Shown here: piece by piece, positions 15,286 to 59,833 of the stretch | Layout of the letters: each line of letters starts with the position of its first letter | Numbering within the stretch: the stretch's first letter is position 1 | Assembly (NCBI GenBank): GCA_947598395.1 | Contig: CANQFG010000001.1 | Location: 17,894-81,893 of the forward strand | Length of the DNA stretch: 64,000 bases | Reading direction: 5' to 3' | Source: an uncultured Bacilli bacterium | GTDB taxonomy: Bacteria; Bacillota_I; Bacilli_A; RF39; UBA660 | Made by a program: the position numbers and the translations under genes | The notes under the pieces: model-generated | Told to the model about the DNA's origin: nothing | Seen by the model: only the letters and a program-made list of their open reading frames with translations | The model's database searches: none

Positions 15286-17052
15286 TTAATTGGTTGGAGC
15301 TAAAGCGAGGCGAAAGCCATCGCCTCCATTTCCCGCACCAGTGTTCCTATTGAAGCCAAACTGTCCAGCTATAACTCCGTTGCTGTAATATCCGCCTCGA
15401 ATGAACCAAGGATACAACGGGTCAACGAAATTGGAAGAGTCAGCGTACCAACGATTGTGATATCGATTTACACCATCTCCATCTTGATAATTAGAAAATG
15501 GCCCCATCTCACCTGTAGCGTCTCCTAATATCATTTTAGTAGATCCATTCATAGTACTTTCATTATCATAAACATCGAAATATTTCGCATTTAAAGTTTT
15601 TAATTCATCAGTTATGAATCCACTAGTATCTTTTGACGATTCAGGTACATAAGCTGCTACATACTCCCATGCTCCTCCGGACATATCATAGACACCAGTT
15701 ATATTTCCCGTCGTACTTGCGGTAAATCCATTTGTCGTGTTCCATTCGGTATTAAAGTTTGCACCATCACCAATTTGACCTGACAATTTATTTTGATCAG
15801 TATCAGTTAAATCTGCATATCCAGTTTTGTATAAACTATTGTTATTAATAGTTACTTCCTTATTTATTCCAAATATTGAGTGACTTAAATAGGCTACTGC
15901 GCCCCATTCAGTATTCTTTAACATATGGGAATTTAATGCATTTTTATATTCTTTTGCAGCATCAAAGAAAGTTTTAACATTCGCTCCCCGCCATGAGTAC
16001 AAACCTGGCTTAACAACTATATTAGTTGATGCACCGGTAGCTTTTTTGGCATCTTCTGCACTATTAGCATCTTTATATCCAACTTCAAACTTACCAATCC
16101 AAAAACCATTTCCTCCAAAGGCTAGGAAAGCGGGATGAGTCATGTATTCACCGTTGGAACATTCACCAATATCGCCACTTACTTTTGGTGTTTTACATGA
16201 GACACCATCGTTTTCGGTTGTATCATTTGTATCAAATTCAATGTCGATGGTATGTATTCCTACATTTTCATTTGTCGTCTCAACATTCCATAATCGATAT
16301 TTATATTTGGGTATCCATACAAACATCGATTCGACTTTTGACATGTCTATTGTTTCGCCATCATCTGAGGCTTCCACTTCATCATTTAAAATTACTGCAT
16401 TAGCCCATCTCTTTTCACAATAGTTATACCAATCAGAATTGTCTTTACTTACTTTTGTTATTTCTCCATTATCATTAATCGTTACTGGTATTAATTTATT
16501 TTCTTCATCAAGAGTTGGTATTGGAATATTTTCACAACTATTCTCTGCTAATAAAACTTCCGGATTATCGTCTCTCTCCGTTGCCGTTGCTGTTATCGTA
16601 CATGTAAATTCTTCCGAAATAGACTCAATGCTTGATTTTTTAAGTTCTACTGTTACCGTTCCACTTGCCCGACTTTGGGCTTTGATTATATCTACAGGCA
16701 TTTCACTTTTTATCGTGACATATTCATTAAACTTCTCTTGATTTTTTGGTACACATTCGATCTCGACTGTTGCATCATATTGCCGTGAATTATTGGTTAC
16801 TTCAAATTCAAGAATGGATGTCTCTCCAATGGTTTTTAATTCACTAGTTTCATATGTAATTTTCTTTCTTGTCTCTTCATCAATTACTTCTCGACTTTTA
16901 TCTTTACCATCAATTATAGCTTTGGAAAAATAAATATCATAATCATCTTTATTAAAACCAAGATTTATTACTCCATTTATTGTCAATGTTGCTGTTACTA
17001 AAGCAAAACCTATTGTCATTAAAATTAAAGCTATTATTATTCCTTTTTTCAT
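15286..17052 (-). CDS. Secreted or membrane-anchored protein with a C-terminal FGE/SUMF1 (sulfatase-modifying-factor-like) domain, paralog A
   Basis: N-terminal signal-anchor MKKGIIIALILMTIGFALVTA. C-terminal FGE-domain signatures NTEWGAVAYLSHS, GVYDMSGGAWEYVAAY, RGGYY...GFRLALAP. About 75% identical to paralog B (21064..22845) over the C-terminal half. Confidence 0.75.
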   Translation of the reverse strand: MKKGIIIALILMTIGFALVTATLTINGVINLGFNKDDYDIYFSKAIIDGKDKSREVIDEETRKKITYETSELKTIGETSILEFEVTNNSRQYDATVEIECVPKNQEKFNEYVTIKSEMPVDIIKAQSRASGTVTVELKKSSIESISEEFTCTITATATERDDNPEVLLAENSCENIPIPTLDEENKLIPVTINDNGEITKVSKDNSDWYNYCEKRWANAVILNDEVEASDDGETIDMSKVESMFVWIPKYKYRLWNVETTNENVGIHTIDIEFDTNDTTENDGVSCKTPKVSGDIGECSNGEYMTHPAFLAFGGNGFWIGKFEVGYKDANSAEDAKKATGASTNIVVKPGLYSWRGANVKTFFDAAKEYKNALNSHMLKNTEWGAVAYLSHSIFGINKEVTINNNSLYKTGYADLTDTDQNKLSGQIGDGANFNTEWNTTNGFTASTTGNITGVYDMSGGAWEYVAAYVPESSKDTSGFITDELKTLNAKYFDVYDNESTMNGSTKMILGDATGEMGPFSNYQDGDGVNRYHNRWYADSSNFVDPLYPWFIRGGYYSNGVIAGQFGFNRNTGAGNGGDGFRLALAPTN

Positions 17053-17084
17053 GTCGATCTCTGCTCCTATTTTCCATTTTCTCT

Positions 17085-17120
17085 ATTGTATTGCACCCCC
17101 CCCAATTGCTTATTTTTCAA
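17085..17120 (-). promoter_or_regulatory. Promoter of FGE paralog A with a poly-G8 tract (C8 on the plus strand, 17096..17103) in the -35/-10 spacer
   Basis: Minus strand TTGAAA (17120..17115), then a 19-nt spacer AATAAGCAATTGGGGGGGG, then TGCAAT (17095..17090). RBS AGGAGC precedes the ATG. The segment is nearly identical to the promoter of paralog B. Confidence 0.6.
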
Positions 17121-17123
17121 CAT

Positions 17124-17146
17124 GAAAAAACTCACCGAAGTGAGCT
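17124..17146 (-). terminator. Rho-independent terminator of the upstream transporter gene
   Basis: Minus strand GCTCACTTCGGTGAGTTTTTT: a perfect 5-bp stem, tetraloop and U-run. Confidence 0.7.
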
Positions 17147-21063: not shown

Positions 21064-22845
21064 TTATTGTGGGGCTAAGACTAGGCGGAAGCTATGGTCT
21101 CGATTTGCGCCATTAATCCAAACAAAGTAGAACTGTCCAGCTAGAACACCATCTTTATAATCACCACCTCGAAAAAACCAAGGCAACGACTGGGAAGCAA
21201 AATTGGAAGCATCTGCATACCAACGATTGTGCCATCTACTTGATTTGTCTCCATCTTGATAATAATTAAACGGCCCAAGCTCACCGGTAGCATCTCCCAA
21301 TATCATTTTAGTATATCCATTTACTTCACTATCTTCATCATATACATCAAAAAATTTAGTACTTAAAGCACTTAACTCTTCTTTGCTAAACCCGCTGGAA
21401 TTTTTTTCTGATTCAGATACATAAGCTGCTACATATTCCCAAGACCCGCCAGACATATCATAGACACCCGTTATATTTCCCGTAGTACTAGCAGTTAACC
21501 CATTTGGCGTGTTCCATGTCGTATTAAATTCGGGGCCATCTCCATATTCGCCAAACATTTTACTTTGGTCTGTTGTTGGTAAAGCCGCATAACCCGTTTT
21601 ATATTGATCATTATTATTTATTGTTATTTCTTTATTTATCCCGAATATTGAATGTGATAGATAGGCAACTGCTCCCCATTCAGTGTTTTTCATCATATGA
21701 GATTCTAAATTTGTATTATATTCTTTAGCTGCTTCAAAGAAAGTTTTAATATTTGCTCCCCGCCACGAATATTCATTTGGTTTAACAACTATATTAGTTG
21801 ATTTACCATTAGTTTGAATGGCATTTTCTGCATTACTAGCATTTTTGTATCCTGTTTCAAATTTGCCTACCCAAAAGCCATCGACTTCAAATGATTTAAA
21901 TGCTGGATGGGTCATATATTCTCCGTTATTACAACTTCCTATATTTCCACTAGTCATTGGTGTTTCACACGATACGCCTTCGATATTTTCAGTGTCTTTA
22001 GTATCAAAAATTATTTCTATGGAATGGGCATTATATAATGGATTTGTTACATTTACATTCCATAAACGATATTTATATTTTGGTATCCACACAAACATTG
22101 CTTCAATATCGTTCATTTCAATTTGTTGATTATCTTCATAATTTTTTGATGGTTCACTTTTTAAAATAACGGCATTAGCCCATTTTTTATTGCAATAATC
22201 ATACCAATCAGGATTATCATTACTTACTTTTGTTATTGTTCCTTCATCATTTATTGTTACTGGTATTAATTTTGTTTCATCGCCTAAATTTGGTACTGCC
22301 ACACTCTTACATGAATCTTCAGCAATATACTTGTCTCCATCTTGATCTCTTTCTGTTGGTGTTACGGTTAGACTACACTTAAACTTTTCGTCAATTTCTT
22401 CTGTACTTACTTTCTTTAGTTCAACTGTTATTGTTCCTTTTCGACTCTCTTGGGCTTTTACTGTTAATTTCTCTGGACTCGATTTTATTTCCGTATATTT
22501 ACTAGTTTGATTTTCAGATACATTTCCATCATCTTCTACCCTTTTACAATCGATAGTTACAGTAGCATCATATTGTTTACTATTATTCATTACTCGATAT
22601 TCTAGTATACTTCTATCACCTATTGTACTTAGATCTTTTGTTTCAAATGTTATACTTTTCTTTTCATTTGTTTCAATTAATTCATTATTGACTACGCCAT
22701 CAAGTATAGCTTCACTAAAGTATACATCAAAGTCTTCGGTATCATATCCATAATTTATGGTACCTGTTATCGTTAAAGTTGTTGCTACAGCTGCAAAACC
22801 AATACTCATTATTACTAATGCGATTATTATTCCTCTTTTTTTCAT
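21064..22845 (-). CDS. Secreted or membrane-anchored protein with a C-terminal FGE/SUMF1-like domain, paralog B
   Basis: MKKRGIIIALVIMSIGFAAVATT signal-anchor. C-terminal NTEWGAVAYLSHS, GVYDMSGGSWEYVAAY, RGGDY...SFRLVLAP. Paralogous to 15286..17052. Confidence 0.75.
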   Translation of the reverse strand: MKKRGIIIALVIMSIGFAAVATTLTITGTINYGYDTEDFDVYFSEAILDGVVNNELIETNEKKSITFETKDLSTIGDRSILEYRVMNNSKQYDATVTIDCKRVEDDGNVSENQTSKYTEIKSSPEKLTVKAQESRKGTITVELKKVSTEEIDEKFKCSLTVTPTERDQDGDKYIAEDSCKSVAVPNLGDETKLIPVTINDEGTITKVSNDNPDWYDYCNKKWANAVILKSEPSKNYEDNQQIEMNDIEAMFVWIPKYKYRLWNVNVTNPLYNAHSIEIIFDTKDTENIEGVSCETPMTSGNIGSCNNGEYMTHPAFKSFEVDGFWVGKFETGYKNASNAENAIQTNGKSTNIVVKPNEYSWRGANIKTFFEAAKEYNTNLESHMMKNTEWGAVAYLSHSIFGINKEITINNNDQYKTGYAALPTTDQSKMFGEYGDGPEFNTTWNTPNGLTASTTGNITGVYDMSGGSWEYVAAYVSESEKNSSGFSKEELSALSTKFFDVYDEDSEVNGYTKMILGDATGELGPFNYYQDGDKSSRWHNRWYADASNFASQSLPWFFRGGDYKDGVLAGQFYFVWINGANRDHSFRLVLAPQ

Positions 22846-22882
22846 GTCGATCGCTGCTCCTATTTTCTATTTTCTCTATTGT

Positions 22883-22912
22883 ATTGCACCCCCCCAGTTG
22901 CATTTTTTTCAA
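22883..22912 (-). promoter_or_regulatory. Promoter of FGE paralog B with a poly-G7 tract (C7 on the plus strand, 22889..22895) in the spacer
   Basis: Minus strand TTGAAA (22912..22907), then an 18-nt spacer AAAATGCAACTGGGGGGG, then TGCAAT (22888..22883). Otherwise nearly identical to promoter A. Confidence 0.6.
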
Positions 22913-22944
22913 CATAAAAAAAGGCCCCTTATTACGGGACTTAA

Positions 22945-24805: not shown

Positions 24806-26322
24806 GAGAATATCGAGTTACATGGGTCCACTGCAACTCCTCCTTGATATGGTTTACCTTTAAAGACCCCTAAGTGAAGATGGGTACCCGTAACGCCACC
24901 GGTATTGCCAATCAAACCGACGCGTTGTTCGCGATCAACTTTTTGACCGACACTGACGAGAATCTTCGACAAATGCATATAGACGGTATAATAGCCATTG
25001 CCATGATCGATATAGACCGAAAGGCCTTCACTCTTATCGCGATTATAATTAACATTAAATACCGTACCAGCTTGAACGGCATAAGCTGGCGATCCATAGC
25101 CATTATTGCGTCCAATGACGGCAATATCGATACCTTGATGTTGCCGACCCCAACGCCACTTGAAGCCCGAAGTTATCGTATATGGACTAGCCGTTGGCCA
25201 ACTCCAATCGTCATTACCTTGACCGGTTTCATGAACATAAGATCCGCCCCCTAAGACTTTCGTACCCCGCGTAATTACTTCATTGACCTCTTGTTTAATC
25301 TTATCGACTTTTAAAGTATTTAAATTTTGAATTTCACCATTGATATATTTGATATTTTGGGTAACGCGGGAAATACCATCTTCACCTTTTTGCGTTACTT
25401 CCTTATAATCATTAAATTTGGTCTTATCATCGACATATTCCGTCTTATAGGCAATTTTGATATCGCTGACAACCGTCTTATAGTAAACGACGCTTACTAA
25501 GGGCGAAATTAAGCTAACATTGATCTTTTCACCAGGCGATAATAGGACATTGGCACTCATATATTGCGGGTTAGCAATCAATAATTCTTCCATATTTAAA
25601 TGATTATCTTCGGCAATCATTTCGAGGTTTTCGCCCTCTTTAGTCGTATATTCTTTTTGATGATCGAGCGTACCAAATAATAGATATTGTGATAAGGTTT
25701 CGGCATCCGTAAAGATATAATCTTCCGTCGAAATATAATCCTTTTTAATCGTAATCTTTTCTTCAAAGTATAAAGACGTTATAATCGAACCCGTATCCGT
25801 AATCTCTTCTTGCGTTTCCTTTTCAAAATCACTCAAATTCTCGGCCCCAATAAAGGCCGCAGCCGTATTATATAGGGCTTCATTGATGATATCTTTATCC
25901 ATCAAATATATTTTTAAAGGGGCCCCTGGTTCCAATATTTCGCCATCATTGATGACTTTTTTCTCCGTATACGTTATCGTAACGACATAACCCTCGATAG
26001 TAAAGGGATCGACATCCTTAATTTTATTATAAATATCGCGGGCATCTTCCACCGTATCATTATAGGTATAGATCTTTTGAACATTTAAGCCATCGGGCGG
26101 ATAAACTTTATCGACATTATAGACATTTTTTATTTCCGATTGTTCTTCATCGATCAAGGCAAGCAATTCATCTTTTGAATCGATTAAACCGACTTTTTCG
26201 CCATCGAGATAGACTTGAAAGGCCGCGACGGGATCATCGGCAACTTTCGTATCCATGCCGACAAAAAACAAAAGAAAAGATAAAATAATGGTTAAAAGCC
26301 CCCCAATAACTTTAATTTTCAT
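24787..26322 (-). CDS. M23 family metallopeptidase (LytM-like) with an N-terminal TM anchor
   Basis: C-terminal HQGIDIA...GNTGGVTGTHLHLGVF M23 motifs. N-terminal TM helix with RBS AGGTGA. Confidence 0.8.
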   Translation of the reverse strand: MKIKVIGGLLTIILSFLLFFVGMDTKVADDPVAAFQVYLDGEKVGLIDSKDELLALIDEEQSEIKNVYNVDKVYPPDGLNVQKIYTYNDTVEDARDIYNKIKDVDPFTIEGYVVTITYTEKKVINDGEILEPGAPLKIYLMDKDIINEALYNTAAAFIGAENLSDFEKETQEEITDTGSIITSLYFEEKITIKKDYISTEDYIFTDAETLSQYLLFGTLDHQKEYTTKEGENLEMIAEDNHLNMEELLIANPQYMSANVLLSPGEKINVSLISPLVSVVYYKTVVSDIKIAYKTEYVDDKTKFNDYKEVTQKGEDGISRVTQNIKYINGEIQNLNTLKVDKIKQEVNEVITRGTKVLGGGSYVHETGQGNDDWSWPTASPYTITSGFKWRWGRQHQGIDIAVIGRNNGYGSPAYAVQAGTVFNVNYNRDKSEGLSVYIDHGNGYYTVYMHLSKILVSVGQKVDREQRVGLIGNTGGVTGTHLHLGVFKGKPYQGGVAVDPCNSIFSCGLPY

Positions 26323-37700: not shown

Positions 37701-38084
37701 TTATTCTTTAATATTATCGAGATCTCCCTTTAAAGTAATAACTCCCCAACCCTCTAATTCATCGCGAAAGGGCTCATAGATATCATTTAACAAGTAGACC
37801 TTTTTTCCATAATAATAGCCAAAGGCAATCTCGGCAAAAGTATTAGGTCCAATATAATTTTGAATTCCCATTCGTTCTTCATTGACGATGAGAACGACTT
37901 CATTTAGACCATTGATTATCCGATCCAAATGGGCCTTTGAAGCTATCTCTTTACTTTTTCCTTCGAGACATTCGATGGGCAAGAGCACTTTATAGCCCCG
38001 ATCTTCCAATTCATCTTTGACTTTTAAAATCTTATCTTTAACTTTCATGCTTCCACATAAGACGATATTTACCACAAAAATCAC
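37701..38084 (-). CDS. Nucleoside 2-deoxyribosyltransferase-like (SLOG/Rossmannoid) small protein
   Basis: IVLCGS N-terminal motif and GPNTFAEIAFGYYYGKKVYLL, which resembles the DSGTAFELGYAYALGKPV catalytic-Glu block of NDT-family proteins. Confidence 0.5.
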   Translation of the reverse strand: MIFVVNIVLCGSMKVKDKILKVKDELEDRGYKVLLPIECLEGKSKEIASKAHLDRIINGLNEVVLIVNEERMGIQNYIGPNTFAEIAFGYYYGKKVYLLNDIYEPFRDELEGWGVITLKGDLDNIKE

Positions 38085-38197
38085 ACTTCTTTAATCGCTA
38101 TCATAATTAAATAGTTTGGTTACAAGTTACTATCTTAACACCAATCATTAATGGTTGCAATAATGAGTGCATCAAAGAAATGATTTTTATTTTTTAT

Positions 38198-39229
38198 CTA
38201 CTTTCTTCCACCTAATATTAACCTATTTGCCAAGCTATTCTTCTTAATAATTTGGATGAGCAAAAGGGATATGCCAATAATCAAAATGGTTATCAATATA
38301 CAAATTAAGTAATTTATGTTCTTTAGATCGTGACAAATATACGGAATAGCTAATTCCATAAAGAAACTTTGAATAATATAGATGCCAAGGGTATTTTGAC
38401 CTAGATAACTTAAAGCTTTTAAAATTTTAGAGTGTAGTTTCCCCATAACAGCCTTTACTAAGGACAAAGTAAGCAAAGAACCGACAAGCCCCATAATGAT
38501 GCGATAAAGGCCAATCGCTAATTGATAAAAATTAATAGCTATCTTTTGCGAGTTAATATTAATAATGGAAAAACCATTGCCATAAATATAGGCATCGCGA
38601 TTGTAAAATAATATTAAAATGTTAAAAAGTATGAGGCTTAGCAGTAATACTTGACCCCCCCCCAGTTGTAGTTTTTCAAGTAGACATAACTTGTTAATAA
38701 TATAGCCGATGAAAAAATAAATATAGATAAATTTGATATTATTAAGTCCGGCAAAATCAGGGAGAATAAAGATGAATAAAAATCCAAAAAGATAGATAAA
38801 TTTATTATCATTAAACTTTTTATTGACGATGCTAATTATGATACTGGAGAATAAAATAGCCCACAAGAACCAAAGAAAACTTAGAAAACTTTTAACCAAA
38901 GAGATATCGACATGAAGGATAAACTTACTTATAAGGAAATAGATAAGAGATGAAGTAAATATTGGTATAAATAATGTCGTAATTTTATTCTTAATCAATT
39001 CTTTTAAGTCATATTTTTTTAAAGAATAATAGAAAAGATAACCACTGATCAGAGCAAATAATGGCATATGAAAACTATAGATAATCTTAAATAGGGGATT
39101 ATCAAAATATATTTCATTAGTAAAATAATAATAACCACTACCATATTGAATACTATGTCCAAATACGACTAAGATTATCGTTAATCCTTTTAATATATCT
39201 AATACGCGATTTCTCTTTAATTCTTGCAT
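38198..39229 (-). CDS. Acyltransferase family 3 (OafA/Oac-like membrane O-acyltransferase) with an in-frame G9 tract
   Basis: N-terminus VLDILKGLTIILVVFGHS and about 10 TM helices. The G9 tract (plus-strand C9, 38655..38663) encodes LQLGGGQV. Confidence 0.8.
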   Translation of the reverse strand: MQELKRNRVLDILKGLTIILVVFGHSIQYGSGYYYFTNEIYFDNPLFKIIYSFHMPLFALISGYLFYYSLKKYDLKELIKNKITTLFIPIFTSSLIYFLISKFILHVDISLVKSFLSFLWFLWAILFSSIIISIVNKKFNDNKFIYLFGFLFIFILPDFAGLNNIKFIYIYFFIGYIINKLCLLEKLQLGGGQVLLLSLILFNILILFYNRDAYIYGNGFSIININSQKIAINFYQLAIGLYRIIMGLVGSLLTLSLVKAVMGKLHSKILKALSYLGQNTLGIYIIQSFFMELAIPYICHDLKNINYLICILITILIIGISLLLIQIIKKNSLANRLILGGRK

Positions 39230-39291
39230 ATTGTACTCCTTATCATTCCATGATTATGCATTTTTTAAACCTAATTATATTATATAATGTT

Positions 39292-40176
39292 TTATGAACC
39301 AATCAACTTATTTTCATTAACTTGGTTTTGCAATAATTCCAATTCTTTAAGACTTTTATTATCTTTTAAGGCATCTATTTGTCTTCTTGCGGAATTATTT
39401 AATCTAATAAGTCTTTCTCTTTGTGGAACTTTTTCCTCAATTAATTCGGCATTTGTATTTTCTAAATTATTTAATATTACTAAATGAAGCAAATCAGTAT
39501 AATCTCTTATATTGCCCTTTTCAGCTAGTTCGGGATTTCTTTCACGCCACTCTTTTGAAGTCATTCCAAATAACGCGACATTTAATACTTCGGCTTCTTC
39601 GGCATACACGAATTGTTTTTGCTTTTCAGTTAAAGTTGGAACTATGCATTTCTTTACTGCATCGGTATGAACAATATAATTAACTTTCGATAGAAGTCTA
39701 GTGGCACTCCACTCAACTTTATATTGATAAGCTTCGTTCGTTTTTAATCTTTCAAATTCCGTTATTAAATATAATTTAAATTCGGGTGATAACCAACTAG
39801 CAAATTCAAAAGCTATATCTGGATGGGCAAATGTACCTTTACTATATTTTCCACTACTTGGAATTATACCAATAGCATTAAAATTTTTCTTCCATCTATT
39901 CGGAGTCATAGTAAATCTATTGTATGGAACTTCTTCAGCTTTAATTCTGTGGGATTCCACGGAATTAAAATTTTCATTATTGATTTCTTCCCATAGACTA
40001 TAATAATCAAAAGAATTCTTATTAGACATCCAATTTCTAATTACTCCAGACGGATCTTCAGAATTTGTATATTTTGCTAAATCGGTCAAAGAAATATAAT
40101 TAACATTTCCTACCCGCATTATTCCAATTTTGTTTTCTTTTACAATAATTTCAGTTGTCACTATATTTGTTTTCAT
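39292..40176 (-). CDS. KilA-N domain-containing protein
   Basis: YISLTDLAKY...IRNWMSNKNSFDYYSLWEEINNENF...GTFAHPDIAFEFASWLSPEFKLYLITEFERLK is the typical KilA-N family block. The start (MKTNIV, RBS GGGGGA) is uncertain and the track ORF extends to 40233. Confidence 0.75.
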   Translation of the reverse strand: MKTNIVTTEIIVKENKIGIMRVGNVNYISLTDLAKYTNSEDPSGVIRNWMSNKNSFDYYSLWEEINNENFNSVESHRIKAEEVPYNRFTMTPNRWKKNFNAIGIIPSSGKYSKGTFAHPDIAFEFASWLSPEFKLYLITEFERLKTNEAYQYKVEWSATRLLSKVNYIVHTDAVKKCIVPTLTEKQKQFVYAEEAEVLNVALFGMTSKEWRERNPELAEKGNIRDYTDLLHLVILNNLENTNAELIEEKVPQRERLIRLNNSARRQIDALKDNKSLKELELLQNQVNENKLIGS

Positions 40177-40234
40177 TTTATTTTCCCCCATTTCCATTTC
40201 CATTACTTTTTTATCGTATTTCCCAATGTACAAC

Positions 40235-41254
40235 TCATTTGCTTTCTATACGATTTGTTTCATTTAATAATCTATCAAAATCCGATACATAATTTCTATC
40301 TTGTATAACTTTATATTTTTCATATTCATTTTCGGCTTTTTGTACTGCTTGTTTATGAGAAATTGTACCTTTTCCCTCTAATACATTATAATGAAAAACT
40401 TTTAGTGCATTTTCAACTTCTTTTTTCCAATCTTCCATATACATGGCAATATTTCTCTCCGCATTATTTTCAGCTATATCTAAAAATAAGTTCACTAAAT
40501 TATTTAAATTTTTAATTTCTTTTTCATCTAAATAATTTTTAGCAATAGTAATATCTGATTTCAGTATTTTACCATCAGGTGATTTTTCCCAATTGGTAAG
40601 CCCCATATTTTCTTTTGTCGAATCAACTCGGTTATAAACTATTTCGGCAGCAGTTTGTCCAGTAATGGCATAATGAAATTTATTTTGAATTGTTTTATAA
40701 AATTCCATTGCAATTTCATCATTTTTATCATAGTCTATTGAACATTCGGCAAAAATATCGGTGACTTTTTGATAAAACATTCTTTCACTTGTACGGATTA
40801 ATTTAATTCTTTCAAGTAATCTTTGAAAATATTCTTGATCTCTCTTGTTTGCTTTCATAAATCTTTCATCATTTAAAGCAAAACCTTGAATCATATAATC
40901 CTTAATTATTTTATTTGCCCAAGTTCTAAACTTGATGGCTTTTTTAGAATTAACTCTAAAGCCAATAGAGATAATCATATCTAAATTATAATACTTTGTA
41001 TTATAAGATTGTTTTCCATCATTACCCATATGTTCCATTTTGGAACATGTGCTTTTTTCTTCAAGTTCACCATCATTGTATATATTATTAATATGTTTAG
41101 TAATCGCTGGCCTTTTAACACTAAAAAGCGTTGCTAAAGCTTCGGTGTTTAGCCAAACATCTTCATTTTCAAGTAACACTTCTACCTTAATATTTCCTTC
41201 TTCATCATTATAAAATAAAATATTTTTTTCATTTCCGATCAATCTATCTTTCAC
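40235..41254 (-). CDS. rhuM: RhuM family virulence/defence-island protein
   Basis: NIKVEVLLENEDVWLNTEALATLF...YYNLDMIISIGFRVNSKKAIKFRTWANKIIKDYMIQGFALNDERF matches the RhuM N-terminal domain. Confidence 0.8.
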   Translation of the reverse strand: MKDRLIGNEKNILFYNDEEGNIKVEVLLENEDVWLNTEALATLFSVKRPAITKHINNIYNDGELEEKSTCSKMEHMGNDGKQSYNTKYYNLDMIISIGFRVNSKKAIKFRTWANKIIKDYMIQGFALNDERFMKANKRDQEYFQRLLERIKLIRTSERMFYQKVTDIFAECSIDYDKNDEIAMEFYKTIQNKFHYAITGQTAAEIVYNRVDSTKENMGLTNWEKSPDGKILKSDITIAKNYLDEKEIKNLNNLVNLFLDIAENNAERNIAMYMEDWKKEVENALKVFHYNVLEGKGTISHKQAVQKAENEYEKYKVIQDRNYVSDFDRLLNETNRIESK

Positions 41255-41303
41255 ACTTACACCTCCTCTAAAATTTTTCTTTTATATTAATATTTTAATA
41301 TAA

Positions 41304-41837
41304 TTATTTATTAACTAAAAACATCTTTAAATTATAAGAAGAATTTTTACTTTTCCTTCTATTGCAATCTTTGCACAGCATTTGCAAATTACTTTTGCCA
41401 AGCTCATCGCCAACATACATCCACGGAATTATATGGTCTAATTCTGATGAATCAAGATCAATATCTTTTTTACAAATATTACATTTACGACTTTGATTTT
41501 GTAGTAATTCAGATCTAATAGCTAAGTCATAAGATATTCGATGGTTATTCTTTGTAAAATATGCATAAAAATATTTATACATTAATTGGCTCTCGGCTTC
41601 GCTTAAACTACACTTTATTCTTTCAAACACTATCTTATGTGTTGTTAAAGCTTTGTCAGAACTGTTAAGAAATCTCTGCTTTACTTCCTTTTTATATTCA
41701 GAATCGCCCATCTCTTGAACCATCGTTTCAAAAATACTTATTAACAAACATTTATAGCTTTCATGCAAATATTTTTGAAGATCAATATTATTCCTTTCTA
41801 ATAAAGAGGTTATTGGTGTATCAACTACATCTATCAC
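41304..41837 (-). CDS. HNH endonuclease
   Basis: CNICKKDIDLDSSELDHIIPW...NLQMLCKDCNRRKS His-Me finger motif. Its start overlaps the stop of the DGQHR gene. Confidence 0.8.
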   Translation of the reverse strand: MIDVVDTPITSLLERNNIDLQKYLHESYKCLLISIFETMVQEMGDSEYKKEVKQRFLNSSDKALTTHKIVFERIKCSLSEAESQLMYKYFYAYFTKNNHRISYDLAIRSELLQNQSRKCNICKKDIDLDSSELDHIIPWMYVGDELGKSNLQMLCKDCNRRKSKNSSYNLKMFLVNK

Positions 41838-43021
41838 TATAATAAGCCACCTATTTGTTCGCTATTGACATAAGCTAACACTTTTTGAATATCACTTTTT
41901 GCTAATGCTATCGTTGCGCCTTCTCCTCTAAATGCTAAGCTTCTTTCGATAGTTTCTTCATTATCTTCGCCTTTATCATCACAAAAAACGCATTTAATAT
42001 TTTCAAGTTTTAAGGCCTCTGGATACTTGGAAATTAGATTTTTAAAATTGTCTTTTAACAATTTTTCTTTATTATTAATCAACTTATCACATATTTCTGG
42101 AAATACATACATTAAATATCTTAACCCACTTATTTTTGTAATAGTATCGGATTCAGGTTGTTGAAATGAAACATTAGATAATTCCTCCCACGCAGATAAG
42201 TAATTATCAATTATAATAACAAAATTATTAACGGCTTCTCTTTCATTTTGATAAACAGGAATAACTCTATTATCATAAAACTTTTTAACTCCATAAAGTT
42301 TAAATATTTTTGACATTTGAGTTTCCTTATATCCCTTTTTAATTTTATCCGCCCCAAACATTATTTTTTGATATAAAGGTGATGAACTTTCACGATTAAT
42401 AGCATCTAATAAGTCATAAGTTACTTCATCATCACCAATCAGCATTCCTAATGACTTTTTTATGTATCTTAAGAGATTTGTCTCAACCTTATCTTGCTTT
42501 TCATTAGTAACCATAAATAATTCTTTTCGCTCATTATCGGTTTGATTACTGAATACGGAAAAATTCATTTCGTAAATTATATTAGAATCAAAATTAGGAT
42601 CGATATAATCCTCATCAAAAGCGATAATACGATGTTGGCCATCTATAATTTCTAATTCATTTTCATGTTCGACAATTTCTTCTTCGGTTTCAGGAAACAT
42701 AATATAGTATTGTGTAATAGTTTTTTTTGTTCCATTTTCCTCTATAAATATTTCCTCACTTCGAACCTTTAGATCCCCTTTAACATTAATAATTGGTGAA
42801 TTAGGGATCAACCCTAATGACTTTTTATCCTCAATTTTTGTTTTTCCTGCAACATATTCACTAATTTCTCTTACTTTTTTCTCTATCCATGGTCGTTGAA
42901 CATCTTGCTTCTCTCCAGCAGTATATTTTCTTCTTAATTTTGCCACCATTCTTGGATCTGCAACCATAGAATAAAAATCTACGTCCTTTTGTTGAATTTT
43001 ATGAACTATAATTTTTTTCAT
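41837..43021 (-). CDS. DGQHR-domain protein (DndB-like, ParB/sulfiredoxin fold)
   Basis: ELEIIDGQHRIIAFDEDYI motif at 394 aa. Its own promoter TTGACA-17-TATATT and RBS AGGGAGAAG. Very AT-rich. Confidence 0.7.
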   Translation of the reverse strand: MKKIIVHKIQQKDVDFYSMVADPRMVAKLRRKYTAGEKQDVQRPWIEKKVREISEYVAGKTKIEDKKSLGLIPNSPIINVKGDLKVRSEEIFIEENGTKKTITQYYIMFPETEEEIVEHENELEIIDGQHRIIAFDEDYIDPNFDSNIIYEMNFSVFSNQTDNERKELFMVTNEKQDKVETNLLRYIKKSLGMLIGDDEVTYDLLDAINRESSSPLYQKIMFGADKIKKGYKETQMSKIFKLYGVKKFYDNRVIPVYQNEREAVNNFVIIIDNYLSAWEELSNVSFQQPESDTITKISGLRYLMYVFPEICDKLINNKEKLLKDNFKNLISKYPEALKLENIKCVFCDDKGEDNEETIERSLAFRGEGATIALAKSDIQKVLAYVNSEQIGGLL

Positions 43022-43044
43022 ACTCTTCTCCCTTCAATGCATAT

Positions 43045-43073
43045 AATATATCGTAAAAAGATTTTATTGTCAA
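43045..43073 (-). promoter_or_regulatory. SigmaA-type promoter of the DGQHR-HNH operon, overlapped by AGATCTT palindromic repeats
   Basis: Minus strand TTGACA ATAAAATCTTTTTACGA TATATT. The palindromes TAAGATCTTA, AAATCTTAT and TAGATCTTG lie at 43063..43125. Confidence 0.5.
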
Positions 43074-43295
43074 GATCTAATTTAATTTATTAAAAATAAG
43101 ATTTATTTAATAAGATCTTATTTTTAAGATCGTAATAAAGTTTGCCCACCCCGAAAGCATTTATAAAATTAACTTAGTTACACCTTATTTTTTCAAATTA
43201 ATTTTGGTTCTAGTTTTTATAATGGTTTATATTTTTTACACATTTAAAGCGTATTTGAACAATCATATTTTTACATTGCACAAAAATTGAATCAT

Positions 43296-43336
43296 AAAAA
43301 AAACTCGCAATCCCATTATTTATGGGATTTTGCGAG
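43296..43336 (-). terminator. Rho-independent terminator of secA (bidirectional hairpin)
   Basis: CTCGCAAAATCCCATAAATAATGGGATTGCGAG followed by an 8-nt U-run on the minus strand. Confidence 0.8.
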
Positions 43337-43337
43337 C

Positions 43338-45839
43338 TTACTTACCACAACAGTTCTTATATTTCTTACCAGACCCACAAGGACATGGATCGTTGCGTCC
43401 TACTTTCTTTTCATTTTTTATAGGAACGCTTTTGGCTTTTTGTTTGCCATCATTGGCTACCCCTTCCATTGGACGAGCTTGGAAATTTTGTTTGACCTCC
43501 ATCTTTAATAAGAACGTAGCAACGGAGGCATCAATGTTATCTTGCATCGCCTCAAACATCTCATAACCCTCAAGAGCGTAAGCTTGTAATGGATTATTTT
43601 GACCATAGCCGCGAAGGCCAATTCCTTCGCGAAGTTGATCCATATCGGAGATATGTTTTACCCACGCTTCATCAATTACACGAAGCGAAGTATGCTTTTC
43701 AAAATCGCGAACCAATTCTTCGGGAATAACCGCAATTTTTTCTTCATAATCATTGATAACGGCTTCACTGATAATCGCAAATACTTCATCATCGGTCTTG
43801 CCCTTTAAATCTTTAGCTTCTAATTTCGATTTTTTAACTAAATTATGATTGACCGTATCGACAATACCTTCTAAGTCACTGTCGGTTAAGTATCCTTCCG
43901 GTTCAATATGGGAATTGATCAAGGCATCGATGTGGTCCTTTATCATATCGAGAATGATTGGATGAATATCCTCAGTGTCGAGAATTTCATTGCGGCGTTC
44001 ATAAATAATCTTTCGTTGTTCGGATACGACGTTATCGTAATCAAGCAAATTTTTCCGCAAGTCATAGTTATTGCCCTCGACCTTCTTTTGAGCCGATTCG
44101 ACGGATTTGGTAAACATCTTGCTGCGAACTTGTTCCATTTCATCTAAGCCAAGCGATTGAACCATACCTTTGATACGATCAGCTCCAAATCGGCGCATTA
44201 AATCATCTTCAAAGGAAATAAAGAATTGGGAATATCCAGGATCGCCTTGACGACCAGCCCGACCACGCAACTGATTATCGATACGCCGCGATTCGTGTCT
44301 TTCCGTTCCGATGACACATAGGCCACCTAATTCGGCAACACCTTCGCCAAGTTTGATATCGGTACCACGACCAGCCATATTAGTAGCAATCGTAACGGCG
44401 CCCTTTTCGCCAGCTTTGGCTATAATTTCTGCTTCACGAGCATGGTTTTTGGCATTTAAGACCTCATGTTTAATGCCAACTTTTTCGAGCATCCGACTCA
44501 ATTTTTCATTTGATTCTACGGAGATCGTACCGACGAGAATAGGTTGTCCCGTAGCATGAATCTTTTTGATAAATTCGACGATAGCTTTATATTTACCCGC
44601 TTCCGTCGCATACATTAAATCGCTCATATCGACACGAATACAAGGTTTATTCGTTGGAATTTCGATAACATACATATTATAGATATCTCTAAATTCCTCT
44701 TCTTCGGTCTTAGCAGTTCCCGTCATACCGGAAATTTTAGCATACATTCTAAAGAGGTTTTGGAATGTAATCGTGGCCATCGTCCGCGTCTCTTCATTGA
44801 TCTTAACGCCTTCTTTGGCTTCAATAGCTTGATGCAAACCATCGGAAAATTGACGTCCTTCCATCAACCGACCGGTAAAAGGATCGACGATAACGACTTT
44901 TTCGGCCCCATCGACGACATAGTCGACATCGATTTTCATACCATAGTTGGCCTTTAAGGCTTGATTGATATGGTGAATGAGGATGGAGTTATCGACATCA
45001 TATAGATTTGTCAATTTAAAGTACTTCTCGATCTTTTTCGAACCAGCTTCGGTTAAAACGACACTTTTAGTCTTCGCATCGACGGTATAGTCATCTTCTT
45101 CGGATAATAATTTGACCGCCTTATCAGCTTCGACATAGAGATTAGCCGCATTGACCCGGCCTCCACTAATGATGAGTGGCGTCCGCGCTTCATCGATGAG
45201 CATCGAGTCAACTTCGTCTAAAATGACATAGTTTAAGCCCCTTTGAACGCGATCTTCAGGACGAACGACCATATTATCGCGAAGATAATCAAAGCCGATT
45301 TCATTATTTGTGGAATAGGTAATATCCGCATTATATACTTCCCTTTTAGCTTCGGGCGTCATATCATGCAAATTAACGCCAACGCTTAAACCTAAGAATT
45401 CATAAATTGGACGCATCCATTCGGCATTACGACTCGTCAAGTATTCATTGACGGTGACAACATGTACGCCCTTTCCCGTCAAAGCATTTAAATACGCCGG
45501 TAACGTCGTCGTAATAGTCTTACCTTCACCAGTTTTCATTTCGGCAATATTGCCAAAATGTAAGGCAAGGCCACCTAGTAATTGTACATAGTAAGGACGT
45601 TCACCGATCTTACGATAGGCAACCTCTCTAACTGCCGCAAAAGCGGGAACAATAATCGCCTCATCATTGATCGTCTTACCATTTTCGAGCTCTTTTTTTA
45701 AAGCATCAGTCGTACTGGCAAGTTCTTCATCACTCATGTGTGAATATTCATCTTCCAATGCGACGATCTTATCTGCAATCTTTTTAAATCTCTTTAATTC
45801 TTTATATTCGGTATCTATTAAACCTTTTAATATGCCCAT
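43338..45839 (-). CDS. secA: Preprotein translocase ATPase SecA
   Basis: 833 aa with DEAD-like motor motifs and a C-terminal Zn-binding CPCGSGKKYKNCCG. Confidence 0.97.
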   Translation of the reverse strand: MGILKGLIDTEYKELKRFKKIADKIVALEDEYSHMSDEELASTTDALKKELENGKTINDEAIIVPAFAAVREVAYRKIGERPYYVQLLGGLALHFGNIAEMKTGEGKTITTTLPAYLNALTGKGVHVVTVNEYLTSRNAEWMRPIYEFLGLSVGVNLHDMTPEAKREVYNADITYSTNNEIGFDYLRDNMVVRPEDRVQRGLNYVILDEVDSMLIDEARTPLIISGGRVNAANLYVEADKAVKLLSEEDDYTVDAKTKSVVLTEAGSKKIEKYFKLTNLYDVDNSILIHHINQALKANYGMKIDVDYVVDGAEKVVIVDPFTGRLMEGRQFSDGLHQAIEAKEGVKINEETRTMATITFQNLFRMYAKISGMTGTAKTEEEEFRDIYNMYVIEIPTNKPCIRVDMSDLMYATEAGKYKAIVEFIKKIHATGQPILVGTISVESNEKLSRMLEKVGIKHEVLNAKNHAREAEIIAKAGEKGAVTIATNMAGRGTDIKLGEGVAELGGLCVIGTERHESRRIDNQLRGRAGRQGDPGYSQFFISFEDDLMRRFGADRIKGMVQSLGLDEMEQVRSKMFTKSVESAQKKVEGNNYDLRKNLLDYDNVVSEQRKIIYERRNEILDTEDIHPIILDMIKDHIDALINSHIEPEGYLTDSDLEGIVDTVNHNLVKKSKLEAKDLKGKTDDEVFAIISEAVINDYEEKIAVIPEELVRDFEKHTSLRVIDEAWVKHISDMDQLREGIGLRGYGQNNPLQAYALEGYEMFEAMQDNIDASVATFLLKMEVKQNFQARPMEGVANDGKQKAKSVPIKNEKKVGRNDPCPCGSGKKYKNCCGK

Positions 45840-49476: not shown

Positions 49477-51604
49477 GGGTTTCTTCACCTACTTCATGTT
49501 TTTCTTTTTCTTTGATGATTTCAAAATCGATTTGATTATCTTCCTTAGAAGCCCGAACACATTTTACTTGGATTAAATCGCCCATCCGATACATTATTTT
49601 ATGGTGTTTGCCAATCAAGGCTTCTAAATCTTCGACATATTCAAAATAATCGCCCGGAATAGTCGTAATCGATACTAAACCTTCAACGAGGTTATCGATC
49701 AATTGCACAAAGAGGCCAAAGCCCGTAACGCCACTGATGACGCCTTTATAACTTTGTCCGACATGTTGTTCCATGTATTCGGCCATCTTCATCTTATCGA
49801 CGGCGCGTTCGGCTTCAACAGCTGCGACTTCGCGTTCGCTAGATTGGCGAGCAACGCCTTCCAAGATGTTTTCATAATGGTGAATCGTCTCCTCATCCAA
49901 TTGATGCTCAAAGATAAATTTGTGCAATAGACGATGCGTTTGTAAATCCGGGTAACGCCGTATTGGACTCGTAAAGTGCAAATAATTACGGCTGGCAAGC
50001 CCAAAGTGACCGATATTGACCGGGCTATAGTAAGCTTTAGGCATACTGCGGACAGCTAATGATTTAATGATATTTAAGGCATAATCGGGAGCTTTAATTT
50101 GATCGAGCATTTTTTGAAATGACTTCGGGGTAATTTTTTCGACATGGCCTTTAATCGTTAAACCGAGGGAAGAACAGAAAGTGATAAACTTTTGGATTTT
50201 CTCCGGCTTAGGAATATCGTGAACCCGATAGATGCCGGGCAAGTCCATATCCGTAAAGATCCGGGCGACCGTTTCGTTAGCAACGATCATAAAGTCCTCG
50301 ATTAAGCGCTCGCCTTCGCCGCGTTCACGAACACTTATATCGCGAGCAACTCCTTGTTCATCGCAGATAATCTTTGCCTCGGGAATATCAAAATCCGAAG
50401 CCCCCCGCATCACCCGTTCGGCACGAATTATATGGGCAAGTTCATTCATTAACTTAAGATTTTCGGCAAAGCGTTCGTATCCAGGCTCGATAATGTCATT
50501 GCTCAAGATGTTATTTACCGCCGTATAAGTCATTTTCTTATTCGATTTAATGATCGATGGGAAGATATTATAATCGGTTACCTTCCCCGATGAATTAATA
50601 TCCATAATTAAAGATATGGCACATCGCGGTTCAGAAGGGTTTAAAGAGCATATGCCATTCGATAATTTATGAGGTAGTTGGGGAATTACCGATCCCGCAA
50701 GATAGGACGACGTTCCCCGCGTTAGAGCTTCGACGTCCAACGGACTATTTTCCGTAACATAATATGAGACATCGGCAATATGAACACCCAAATGATATAA
50801 GCCCTTTTCATACTTTAAGCTAACGGCATCATCGATATCATGCGTATCATAGCTATCGATCGTAAAGATCATCTCATCGGTTAGATCGACGCGTCCTTGA
50901 TAATCTTTTCTTAACACTTCCGTCGGCATCGCTTCTGCCTGAGTCATGGCCTCTTCGGGAAAATCCGGATATATATCGTAAGTTGCCGCCACCATCAAGA
51001 TATCCTTACTGGCATCATTTTTATGAGCAATATGGCGCGTAATCGTCGCTTCATAGCGGTTTTTACCCAAATCTTTCGTTATCGAAGCTACGACAATTTC
51101 CCCATCAACACATTTTTTTAAAGAGTCAGGATCAATAATTAATTCGATATGGCACTTATCCTTAGGTACAAAAACCAATTTATTATCGATCATATTTATC
51201 ATACCAACGACATTTTTGACATCTCTTTTTATAACTTTTAATACTTTTCCTTCAGGACTTTCCAAATTTGATCCCAATACTTCAACTAAAACCGTATCCC
51301 CATCTAAAGCATAGTTTAGTTCCTTGGGAGCAATATGAATATCCGGTCCATCTTCTTGCAATAAAAAGCCAAAGCCCTTTTTATTGACATCGATTATCCC
51401 CGTTTTAAAATTCGGACATTTGCTATATAAGATATACTTTTTCTTCTTCGTTTCATAGACGACTAAATCGGAAACAAGTTCATTTAAGGTCGTTATTAAC
51501 TCAGCTAATTCATCCGGTGTCGTAAGACCCAAAGCATCATTAATAGCCATTATATCTAAAGCATCATACTGCGTATTTAAAAAATTTAGTACCTTTTCTT
51601 TCAT
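49457..51604 (-). CDS. rnr: Ribonuclease R
   Basis: RNB catalytic domain and a C-terminal S1 domain with a basic tail. The secG-rnr-smpB order is conserved. Confidence 0.92.
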   Translation of the reverse strand: MKEKVLNFLNTQYDALDIMAINDALGLTTPDELAELITTLNELVSDLVVYETKKKKYILYSKCPNFKTGIIDVNKKGFGFLLQEDGPDIHIAPKELNYALDGDTVLVEVLGSNLESPEGKVLKVIKRDVKNVVGMINMIDNKLVFVPKDKCHIELIIDPDSLKKCVDGEIVVASITKDLGKNRYEATITRHIAHKNDASKDILMVAATYDIYPDFPEEAMTQAEAMPTEVLRKDYQGRVDLTDEMIFTIDSYDTHDIDDAVSLKYEKGLYHLGVHIADVSYYVTENSPLDVEALTRGTSSYLAGSVIPQLPHKLSNGICSLNPSEPRCAISLIMDINSSGKVTDYNIFPSIIKSNKKMTYTAVNNILSNDIIEPGYERFAENLKLMNELAHIIRAERVMRGASDFDIPEAKIICDEQGVARDISVRERGEGERLIEDFMIVANETVARIFTDMDLPGIYRVHDIPKPEKIQKFITFCSSLGLTIKGHVEKITPKSFQKMLDQIKAPDYALNIIKSLAVRSMPKAYYSPVNIGHFGLASRNYLHFTSPIRRYPDLQTHRLLHKFIFEHQLDEETIHHYENILEGVARQSSEREVAAVEAERAVDKMKMAEYMEQHVGQSYKGVISGVTGFGLFVQLIDNLVEGLVSITTIPGDYFEYVEDLEALIGKHHKIMYRMGDLIQVKCVRASKEDNQIDFEIIKEKEKHEVGEETHGRNKK

Positions 51605-59068: not shown

Positions 59069-59833
59069 TTATCGTGGATAGCCAACGTACATCATTCCAT
59101 TGCCAACTAGACCACCGATGCCATTTTTGCCATATTTTGTCTTGCTTAGTAATTCCTTTATATCGATATTGGTTCGCTTATCGGTTAAAGCGACATTGAC
59201 GGCTATAACGGCCGGATCGAGAGCATGAATATTGACGCGTTTGGGACTCGATGCAAAATTGGCTCCACATTTTATGATATCTTCATAATCACTTTGACAA
59301 GCTCCAGCAATAATTACCAACTTCTCATGAGATTTTTCATATTCGCGGGCTATTTGTACGGATTTGGCAAAATACTTCGAATTTTTATAATTATTGATAT
59401 TATTAGTACCACCTTGCTTTTCATAATAAGCATCGTGGCCCGTTATGACTAAAATATCCGGTTTTATTTCGCGAAGGAGCGTCATTAAGATATTCGGTAT
59501 ATCGCTTTCTTTGACTTGTTTTCCGATGGCCAAGACACCGGCTTTTTTATAAAATTCCAAAGACTTATTCAAATAATCTTCATCGCCATCGATATGGAGT
59601 ATTTTACCGGGCATATAAAAATATTCATCGCGATTCATCTCTTCAAAATCGATTTCGGGGTTATATTCGTCATGGCGTTCGGATAAGACTAAATCACTTA
59701 GCGGAGCATCGGCATAAAGTCGAACGTCGGTACCCTTTAAGAGAGCTTCATTTTCTTTAATATCTGTTACGATAAAGACGACATCATTATTATAACTATT
59801 TCGCGTGACAATTGAACCTATTTCAATTTTCAT
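59069..59833 (-). CDS. yabG: Sporulation-specific protease YabG
   Basis: About 250 aa YabG-like peptidase with the conserved ILVITGHDAY and IIAGACQS blocks. ksgA-yabG synteny with B. subtilis. Confidence 0.7.
   Translation of the reverse strand: MKIEIGSIVTRNSYNNDVVFIVTDIKENEALLKGTDVRLYADAPLSDLVLSERHDEYNPEIDFEEMNRDEYFYMPGKILHIDGDEDYLNKSLEFYKKAGVLAIGKQVKESDIPNILMTLLREIKPDILVITGHDAYYEKQGGTNNINNYKNSKYFAKSVQIAREYEKSHEKLVIIAGACQSDYEDIIKCGANFASSPKRVNIHALDPAVIAVNVALTDKRTNIDIKELLSKTKYGKNGIGGLVGNGMMYVGYPR

Follow-up and report, generated by a model that had tools for sequence, protein, structure and literature searches.

A G9 homopolymer within an accessory acyltransferase-3 gene of an uncultured Bacilli bacterium as a possible ON/OFF switch

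The window analysed here, a stretch of 64,000 nucleotides from an uncultured Bacilli bacterium, carries at positions 38198..39229 on the minus strand a gene for a 343 aa membrane protein that had been read from the sequence alone as an acyltransferase-3 (AT3) enzyme. This assignment is borne out by a Pfam match, by an end-to-end alignment with the NCBIfam NolL model and by a structural match to human HGSNAT. The Pfam Acyl_transf_3 family (PF01757) is matched over residues 10-322 with E = 2.9e-31 and 109.2 bits, the cut-off being 31, and the match covers profile positions 4-324 of 326; it is the single Pfam domain of the protein, with no fused SGNH. The alignment with the NolL model scores 80.6 bits, far below the equivalog cut-off of 425, so that orthology to NolL was rejected and the likeness is confined to architecture. 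An AlphaFold model built on 23 homologs is helical throughout the 343 aa (pLDDT 90.4, pTM 0.89), and the predicted structure is the polytopic, all-helical membrane fold of about ten helices, lacking SGNH, that characterises AT3-only proteins. The best solved-structure match of the model is 8vkj (probability 1.0, TM 0.47 normalised to the query), the transmembrane acetyl-CoA acetyltransferase HGSNAT of humans. A sequence search for PDB relatives of the protein found none. Both H25 in helix 1 and the helix 3 motif S52-F53-H54-M55-P56-L57 are invariant in the 23 aligned sequences, and in the AT3 family literature the helix-1 His and the helix-3 motif are given a catalytic role. Judged by sequence and predicted fold, the product belongs to the stand-alone AT3 sugar O-acyltransferases with the architecture of Oac and NolL (PMC9558356).

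A promoter-like element, TTGATT-16-TATAAT, lies upstream of the start codon (39229) at 39279..39306 on the minus strand, the call being a consensus match alone (10/12 in the consensus scan). No glycan-synthesis genes adjoining the AT3 gene were found in the Pfam, NCBIfam and PADLOC annotation of its neighbours. Homologs of the protein, the closest of which are 44-47% identical once copies of the same gene are set aside, are encoded beside PBP/sortase genes or beside Alg14/GT28/GtrA genes, and these neighbourhoods point only generally to the cell envelope as the putative acceptor site.

A low-GC (26-29%) accessory island at 38000..43300 on the minus strand, delimited by composition and by Pfam, NCBIfam and PADLOC matches and flanked by DNA of 35-42% GC, has the AT3 gene as its last. 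The island is placed between secA (43338-45839), with the AT3 side downstream of secA, and the genes leading to prfB. Besides AT3, its cargo comprises a DGQHR/DpdB-like gene, an HNH nuclease gene, a RhuM-family gene (PADLOC PDC-S05) and a KilA-N gene (PADLOC PDC-S22), all within 39292-43021, and these neighbours are candidate anti-phage genes of the defence-island type. Relatives whose SecA is 84-85% identical lack the AT3 gene and carry other cargo downstream of secA, either DUF4379 with a protein kinase or another KilA-N gene (loci L121-L124). The site downstream of secA looks like an integration or defence hotspot, and by the same comparison the AT3 gene is accessory and was probably acquired horizontally. 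The sequence-only reading had added that enzymes of this kind are frequently phage-borne, which does not extend to this copy: a prophage origin was rejected given that the protein matches no PHROG family, its neighbours include no phage structural genes and no close match to it was found among phage records, the best being 37% identical over partial length. Relatives on viral contigs reach at most about 34% identity over full length. One IMG/VR contig (IMGVR_UViG_2700989521_000010; L146, 3195-3201) carries an AT3 homolog, 53% identical over the first 72 residues, that is split between frames exactly at an A7 run and may be either a frameshifted copy or a sequencing error. The idea that poly-G is a recurrent feature of viral AT3 homologs was rejected, a single C7 run having been seen, in a contig of 58% GC. 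A switch based on invertible DNA was likewise rejected, as only weak AT-rich inverted repeats occur around the AT3 gene.

Within the AT3 ORF, an in-frame G9 homopolymer has been confirmed at 38655..38663 (C9 on the plus strand), spanning L189-G192. As previously described, the coding strand reads CAA CTG GGG GGG GGT CAA and encodes QLGGGQ (aa 188-193). A homopolymer census also upheld the earlier count of G/C runs of 7 or more, of which the window contains just three: a G8 at 17096-17103, a G7 at 22889-22895 and the G9, all of them G on the minus strand, which is the coding strand for nearly every gene in the window. When the threshold is lowered to 6 or more, five runs are found in the whole window, the two added ones being G6 at 26299-26304 and 50401-50406, each again G on the minus strand, and the longest G run on the plus strand is 5, which fits the strong bias of the window in gene strand and GC skew. 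The abundance of runs from C3 to C6 decays as 355, 78, 7 and 2, a decay from which far less than one run of at least 7 is expected, against the three observed. In dinucleotide-preserving shuffles, 0.05 G9 tracts are expected per window, with at least one appearing in 4/100 shuffles, and the AT3 gene itself has a GC content of 26-28%. The tract is real and, locally, very unexpected.

The position of the tract in the protein differs from what had been proposed, namely the middle of a transmembrane region. In the AlphaFold model, residues 187-191 form a predicted loop that separates helices 162-180/183-186 from helix 192-207, and this is the most variable short inter-helix loop in the homolog alignment. 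A GGG peptide occurs there in 0/22 homologs, which are rich in Lys, Asn and Gln at this position. The two nearest homologs (44-47% identity) use A-rich codons in the loop, and their G/C runs stay below 5 throughout the gene. The tract also draws on codons that are rare in the window, with CTG (1.4% of Leu codons) used once and GGG (8.7% of Gly codons) used twice. The variable loop, the rare codons and the A-rich DNA of homologs together indicate that the tract is a lineage-specific DNA feature, not the by-product of a required peptide; as in contingency genes, the repeat is one that the protein does not require.

The products of tract-length variants were computed, and they agree with the suggestion that G9 is the ON frame and that a slip of one nucleotide in either direction truncates the protein. 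Tracts of G7, G8, G10 and G11 yield products of 201, 196, 202 and 197 aa, respectively, since both shifted frames end within 5-11 codons. Truncation drops the last four or five helices and removes the C-terminal 151 residues, including the invariant R243, G247, G250, G277, I283 and Y284. The gene thus shares with known contingency genes a G/C homopolymer of at least 7-8 inside the ORF and the loss of the full-length product upon a change of one nucleotide in tract length.

The two other long G runs of the window are intergenic. Tract A (G8, 17096..17103, minus strand) and tract B (G7, 22889..22895, minus strand; also G7 in metagenome contig L120) lie upstream of genes for paralogous proteins of 588 aa and 593 aa, respectively, within a module of the form ATGCAAYTG-Gn-TGCAATACAATAGAGAAAATGGAAAATAGGAGCAG that stands upstream of the start codons of paralogous proteins of about 590-600 aa. 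At least four copies of the module have been detected, two in the window at 17060-17135 (G8) and 22852-22927 (G7) and two in contigs L182 (7905-7985, G9) and L185 (1095-1175, G9); the latter carry two more paralogs and come from the same metagenome samples, and thus from the same organism or from a co-occurring close relative. The succession of G8, G7, G9 and G9 across these copies indicates that the module is conserved while the length of its tract drifts. The paralogs in the window (15286-17052 and 21064-22845, both on the minus strand) are 61% identical, have an N-terminal hydrophobic anchor and have thousands of homologs in related metagenomic Bacilli; no Pfam family matches them at E<=0.001, and the weak match to an FGE-sulfatase-like family has E = 0.003. 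No sigma-70 promoter was called across tract A or B by the consensus scanner. Measured by hand, TTGAAA lies 19 nt (A) and 18 nt (B) from TGCAAT, and 24 nt (A) and 23 nt (B) from TACAAT, and a role for both tracts as promoter-spacer tracts is plausible on this spacing. A search of JGI metagenomes with the promoter-module pattern gave 0 matches. Contigs L183 and L184, which start or end exactly at a promoter G tract, were rejected as a sign of length heterogeneity, because a repeat present in several copies, such as the module, would break a de Bruijn assembly anyway.

AT3 genes that vary in phase are documented in other bacteria, in keeping with what the sequence-only reading had stated of the family, among them Neisseria pglI with its polyG tract (PMC10425976) and Haemophilus influenzae oafA (PMC9558356). 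The pglI gene of N. meningitidis and N. gonorrhoeae, which acts on the pilin glycan, carries within its ORF a polyG repeat whose length determines whether it is ON or OFF, and isolates differ in this state (PMC10425976). It resembles the present gene as an AT3 membrane acetyltransferase of a surface glycan with polyG in its ORF, but it has an AT3-SGNH fusion architecture (PMC9558356), belongs to a Gram-negative pathogen and shows documented variation in tract length among isolates, whereas the gene described here encodes an AT3-only protein of 343 aa in an uncultured Bacilli host with G9 in 7/7 assemblies; the two, which share the Pfam family, are probably not orthologs. In H. influenzae, oafA encodes the O-acetylase of the LOS heptose and is likewise an AT3 gene switched ON and OFF, with a surface glycan varied as a result (PMC9558356). 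It differs in its substrate, a Gram-negative LOS, and, as far as the title of a study cited in PMC9558356 conveys, in its repeat unit, a tetranucleotide and not a homopolymer. The AT3-only architecture has its counterparts in Oac of Shigella phage Sf6, NolL of rhizobia, WbaK and WecH, stand-alone proteins of about 330-350 aa without SGNH (PMC9558356), which have in common with the present protein the family-wide helix-1 His and FHMP motif. Oac is prophage-encoded, unlike the copy described here, which has no surrounding phage genes or PHROG match, and a poly-G switch is not reported for any of these four proteins in PMC9558356 or PMC10425976. In Salmonella, phase-variable expression of O-antigen acetyltransferases of the OafB/GtrC type modulates the interaction with phages (PMC9558356), but these are AT3-SGNH proteins and the switching is epigenetic, through methylation-dependent promoters and not through repeat slippage. 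By analogy, the present case would follow the same logic as the known switches, differing from them in its stand-alone AT3 enzyme, its Bacilli host and its location in a defence island. Read in this manner, the gene is an addition to the known phase-variable AT3 genes, and the mechanism itself is not new.

With a probability of roughly 0.55, the G9 tract is an ON/OFF contingency switch of the accessory AT3 sugar O-acetyltransferase, operating by slipped-strand mispairing. This reading is favoured by the excess of long G runs, by a tract that the protein does not dictate, by the intact state of the gene, by the recurrence of poly-G in the promoter modules, by a G6/G7 difference between strains of a related species, by the location in a low-GC island with candidate anti-phage genes and by the precedent of pglI and oafA. 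With G9, or with a length differing from it by a multiple of 3, the full enzyme of 343 aa would be made and would presumably pass an acetyl group across the membrane onto a glycan of the cell envelope. The loss or gain of one G during replication would shift the frame in the loop after helix 6 and give a product of 196 or 202 aa, and the glycan would be left unmodified in this OFF state until a second slip restored the frame. The likely benefit would be that a surface structure recognised by phages or by a host could be varied. As a switch the arrangement is structurally sound and has the right hallmarks; hypermutability in this organism, the acetylated substrate and any selective value are inferences. 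Weighing against the switch are the uniform G9 of the copies seen, the lack of truncated products in the protein collection and the absence of glycan-synthesis genes beside the AT3 gene.

The main rival to a slippage switch is an incidental homopolymer, the product of chance or of a neutral in-frame expansion, which sits in a permissive loop of a horizontally acquired gene and is not maintained as a switch. An expansion from G6 to G9 would add one Gly and leave a fragile site that sometimes inactivates the gene. We hold this to be possible, though on the unlikely side. The tract is G9 in 7/7 assemblies, namely the window and six metagenome contigs (L001-L006; ENA ERZ27249446, ERZ27249440 and ERZ27060145, and Logan ERR10663690-92), which probably come from few studies. 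The absence of tract-length differences among these seven would be expected of an incidental tract; the seven amount to only two alleles, seen as consensus sequences at about 5x coverage, which gives the comparison low power. In the protein database the nearest entry, P0001 (342 aa), is encoded by this gene in the six contigs, whose sequences are identical to one another throughout it. No truncated AT3 product of 196 or 202 aa was found among 5.8 billion protein clusters, where a frameshifted copy was expected as a 100%-identical fragment of that size ranking just below P0001, and the 90% cluster of the protein has two members. A gene-specific pattern with a variable gap gave 0 matches in JGI metagenomes and 0 in IMG/VR. 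A look-up through neighbouring genes (P0143 and a TPM protein), chosen so that frameshifted AT3 copies would still be caught, recovered two further contigs, both ending 3' of the tract.

The window and metagenome alleles differ at eight places, all within 240 nt (39095-39335) spanning the 5' end of the AT3 gene and its upstream region, and the other ~1.7 kb of the ~1.97 kb aligned have no differences. These are six SNPs, a T6/T5 indel at 39260 and a TAT/TTA triplet indel at 39132-39134, and their clustering suggests a patch of recombination or a local hotspot. Three of the SNPs fall within the AT3 ORF and are all synonymous, and the gene is otherwise intact. The triplet repeat (39125..39134, minus strand; Y33-Y35) has 3 copies in the window and 2 in the metagenome allele, so that P0001 differs from the window protein solely by YYY -> YY, in six of six contigs; the change, in frame and of the slippage type, falls in the loop that follows helix 1. 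This neutral length difference in a second in-frame repeat of the AT3 gene is in line with an incidental origin of G9, as are the loop around the tract, which tolerates any sequence, and the often transient nature of genes in accessory islands. Composition can be counted on the same side: an expectation of 0.05 G9 per 64 kb amounts to about one per genome of a few Mb; across a whole genome, composition alone might account for one G9. Chance has to contend, however, with a local GC of just 26-28% and with a tract built on two rare Gly codons and on the least used of the Leu codons. Poly-G also recurs in the regulatory module, whose four copies belong to the organism itself or to a close relative found with it, which suggests that such tracts are tolerated or used, not purged.

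A further explanation concerns kinship between the AT3 tract and the promoter modules. Here the tract would be a templated copy or gene-conversion patch of a promoter cassette, or an internal, tract-dependent promoter-like element (TTGAAA, 10 nt, G9) that drives sequence downstream of it, which we consider improbable. The flank CAACTG (CAATTG in tract A) noted before all three tracts is indeed present, and CAAYTGGGGGGG, that is, CAAYTG followed by at least 7 G, occurs 3 times against 0.00 expected. For a wider pattern, TTGAAA-N5-6-CAAYTG, the window has four occurrences where 0.12 are expected, and all but one adjoin the long G runs. The fourth, TTGAAA-N6-CAATTG at 59809-59826 on the minus strand, lies inside the 5' end of ORF 59069-59833, has no G run and was taken as chance. 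In a neutral anchored alignment to the promoter flank, the AT3 site is equalled by 64 of the 127,820 positions in the window (p = 5e-4). The distance of 19 nt from TTGAAA to TCAAGT at the AT3 site is also that between TTGAAA and TGCAAT in promoter A. Against this, the pattern was picked after the data were seen, and TCAAGT is without the key A2 of the -10 hexamer, the consensus scan calling no promoter there. The AT3 site aligns to the module on the 5' side only, as TTGAAAAA..CAACT-Gn-T, and the similarity stops right 3' of the tract, where 5/11 positions match in an ungapped comparison and the conserved module part TGCAATACAATAGAG is absent. With the 3' half lacking and the site being intragenic, the AT3 tract is not a member of the poly-G promoter module. 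Furthermore, TTGAAAAACTA encodes L-E-K-L, and E-K-L recurs at this place in homologs with GAAAAA codons, which makes this part of the flank ordinary coding sequence. Of the common origin suggested for the flanks, the resemblance stands and the origin is improbable; the TTGAAAAACTA part is explained by coding sequence shared with homologs. Based on these alignments, the likeness is an unexplained resemblance with a low probability of carrying meaning. A portable poly-G switch (TTGAAA, ~10 nt, CAAYTG, Gn, T) that spread by copying among regulatory regions and a coding loop, or flanks under selection for tuning slippage or for binding a common factor, would likewise be improbable.

Slippage could also act at the level of RNA, with transcriptional slippage or programmed ribosomal frameshifting on the G9 producing a mixture of full-length and truncated protein. 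Long homopolymers can cause transcriptional slippage, and every copy has the identical tract in its DNA, as such a process would allow. The shifted frames, however, stop within 5-11 codons and add no domain. In the slippage-dependent genes known to us the shift is needed for the functional product, whereas in the AT3 gene the zero frame is the functional one, and RNA-level slippage is accordingly very improbable. That the G9 is a sequencing or assembly artefact, as might be thought given that homopolymers are error-prone in sequencing, is effectively refuted, since the same G9 is found in the window, which derives from NCBI, and in six independent assemblies from ENA/Logan.

Neisseria, Haemophilus and Campylobacter vary the modification of their surface glycans by means of repeat tracts. 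If the G9 tract switches, an uncultured Bacilli lineage would be using the same device for surface-glycan modification, and would be doing so alongside a multi-copy family of poly-G-controlled genes for putative surface proteins. Were the portable switch or the selection on its flanks real, the surface-protein family and the glycan acetyltransferase would be wired into a common switching system. To our knowledge, repeat-mediated phase variation is far less documented in commensal Firmicutes/Bacilli than invertible promoters are. A small 'phasome' with a glycan acetyltransferase in a defence island would offer a useful handle on phage-host and host-microbe dynamics, and for annotation it would mean that in some assemblies such genes will look like pseudogenes. 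A tract that does not switch would leave an accessory AT3 gene of the ordinary kind, carrying a fragile homopolymer.

A separate G run has been observed in a related species (SecA 84% identical), where it lies beside a start codon in the context TAGATA-Gn-CTTAATATG. Its length is polymorphic in this wider lineage and differs between strains, being G7 in one (L121, 7577-7583) and G6 in two others (L122/L123, 7578-7583).
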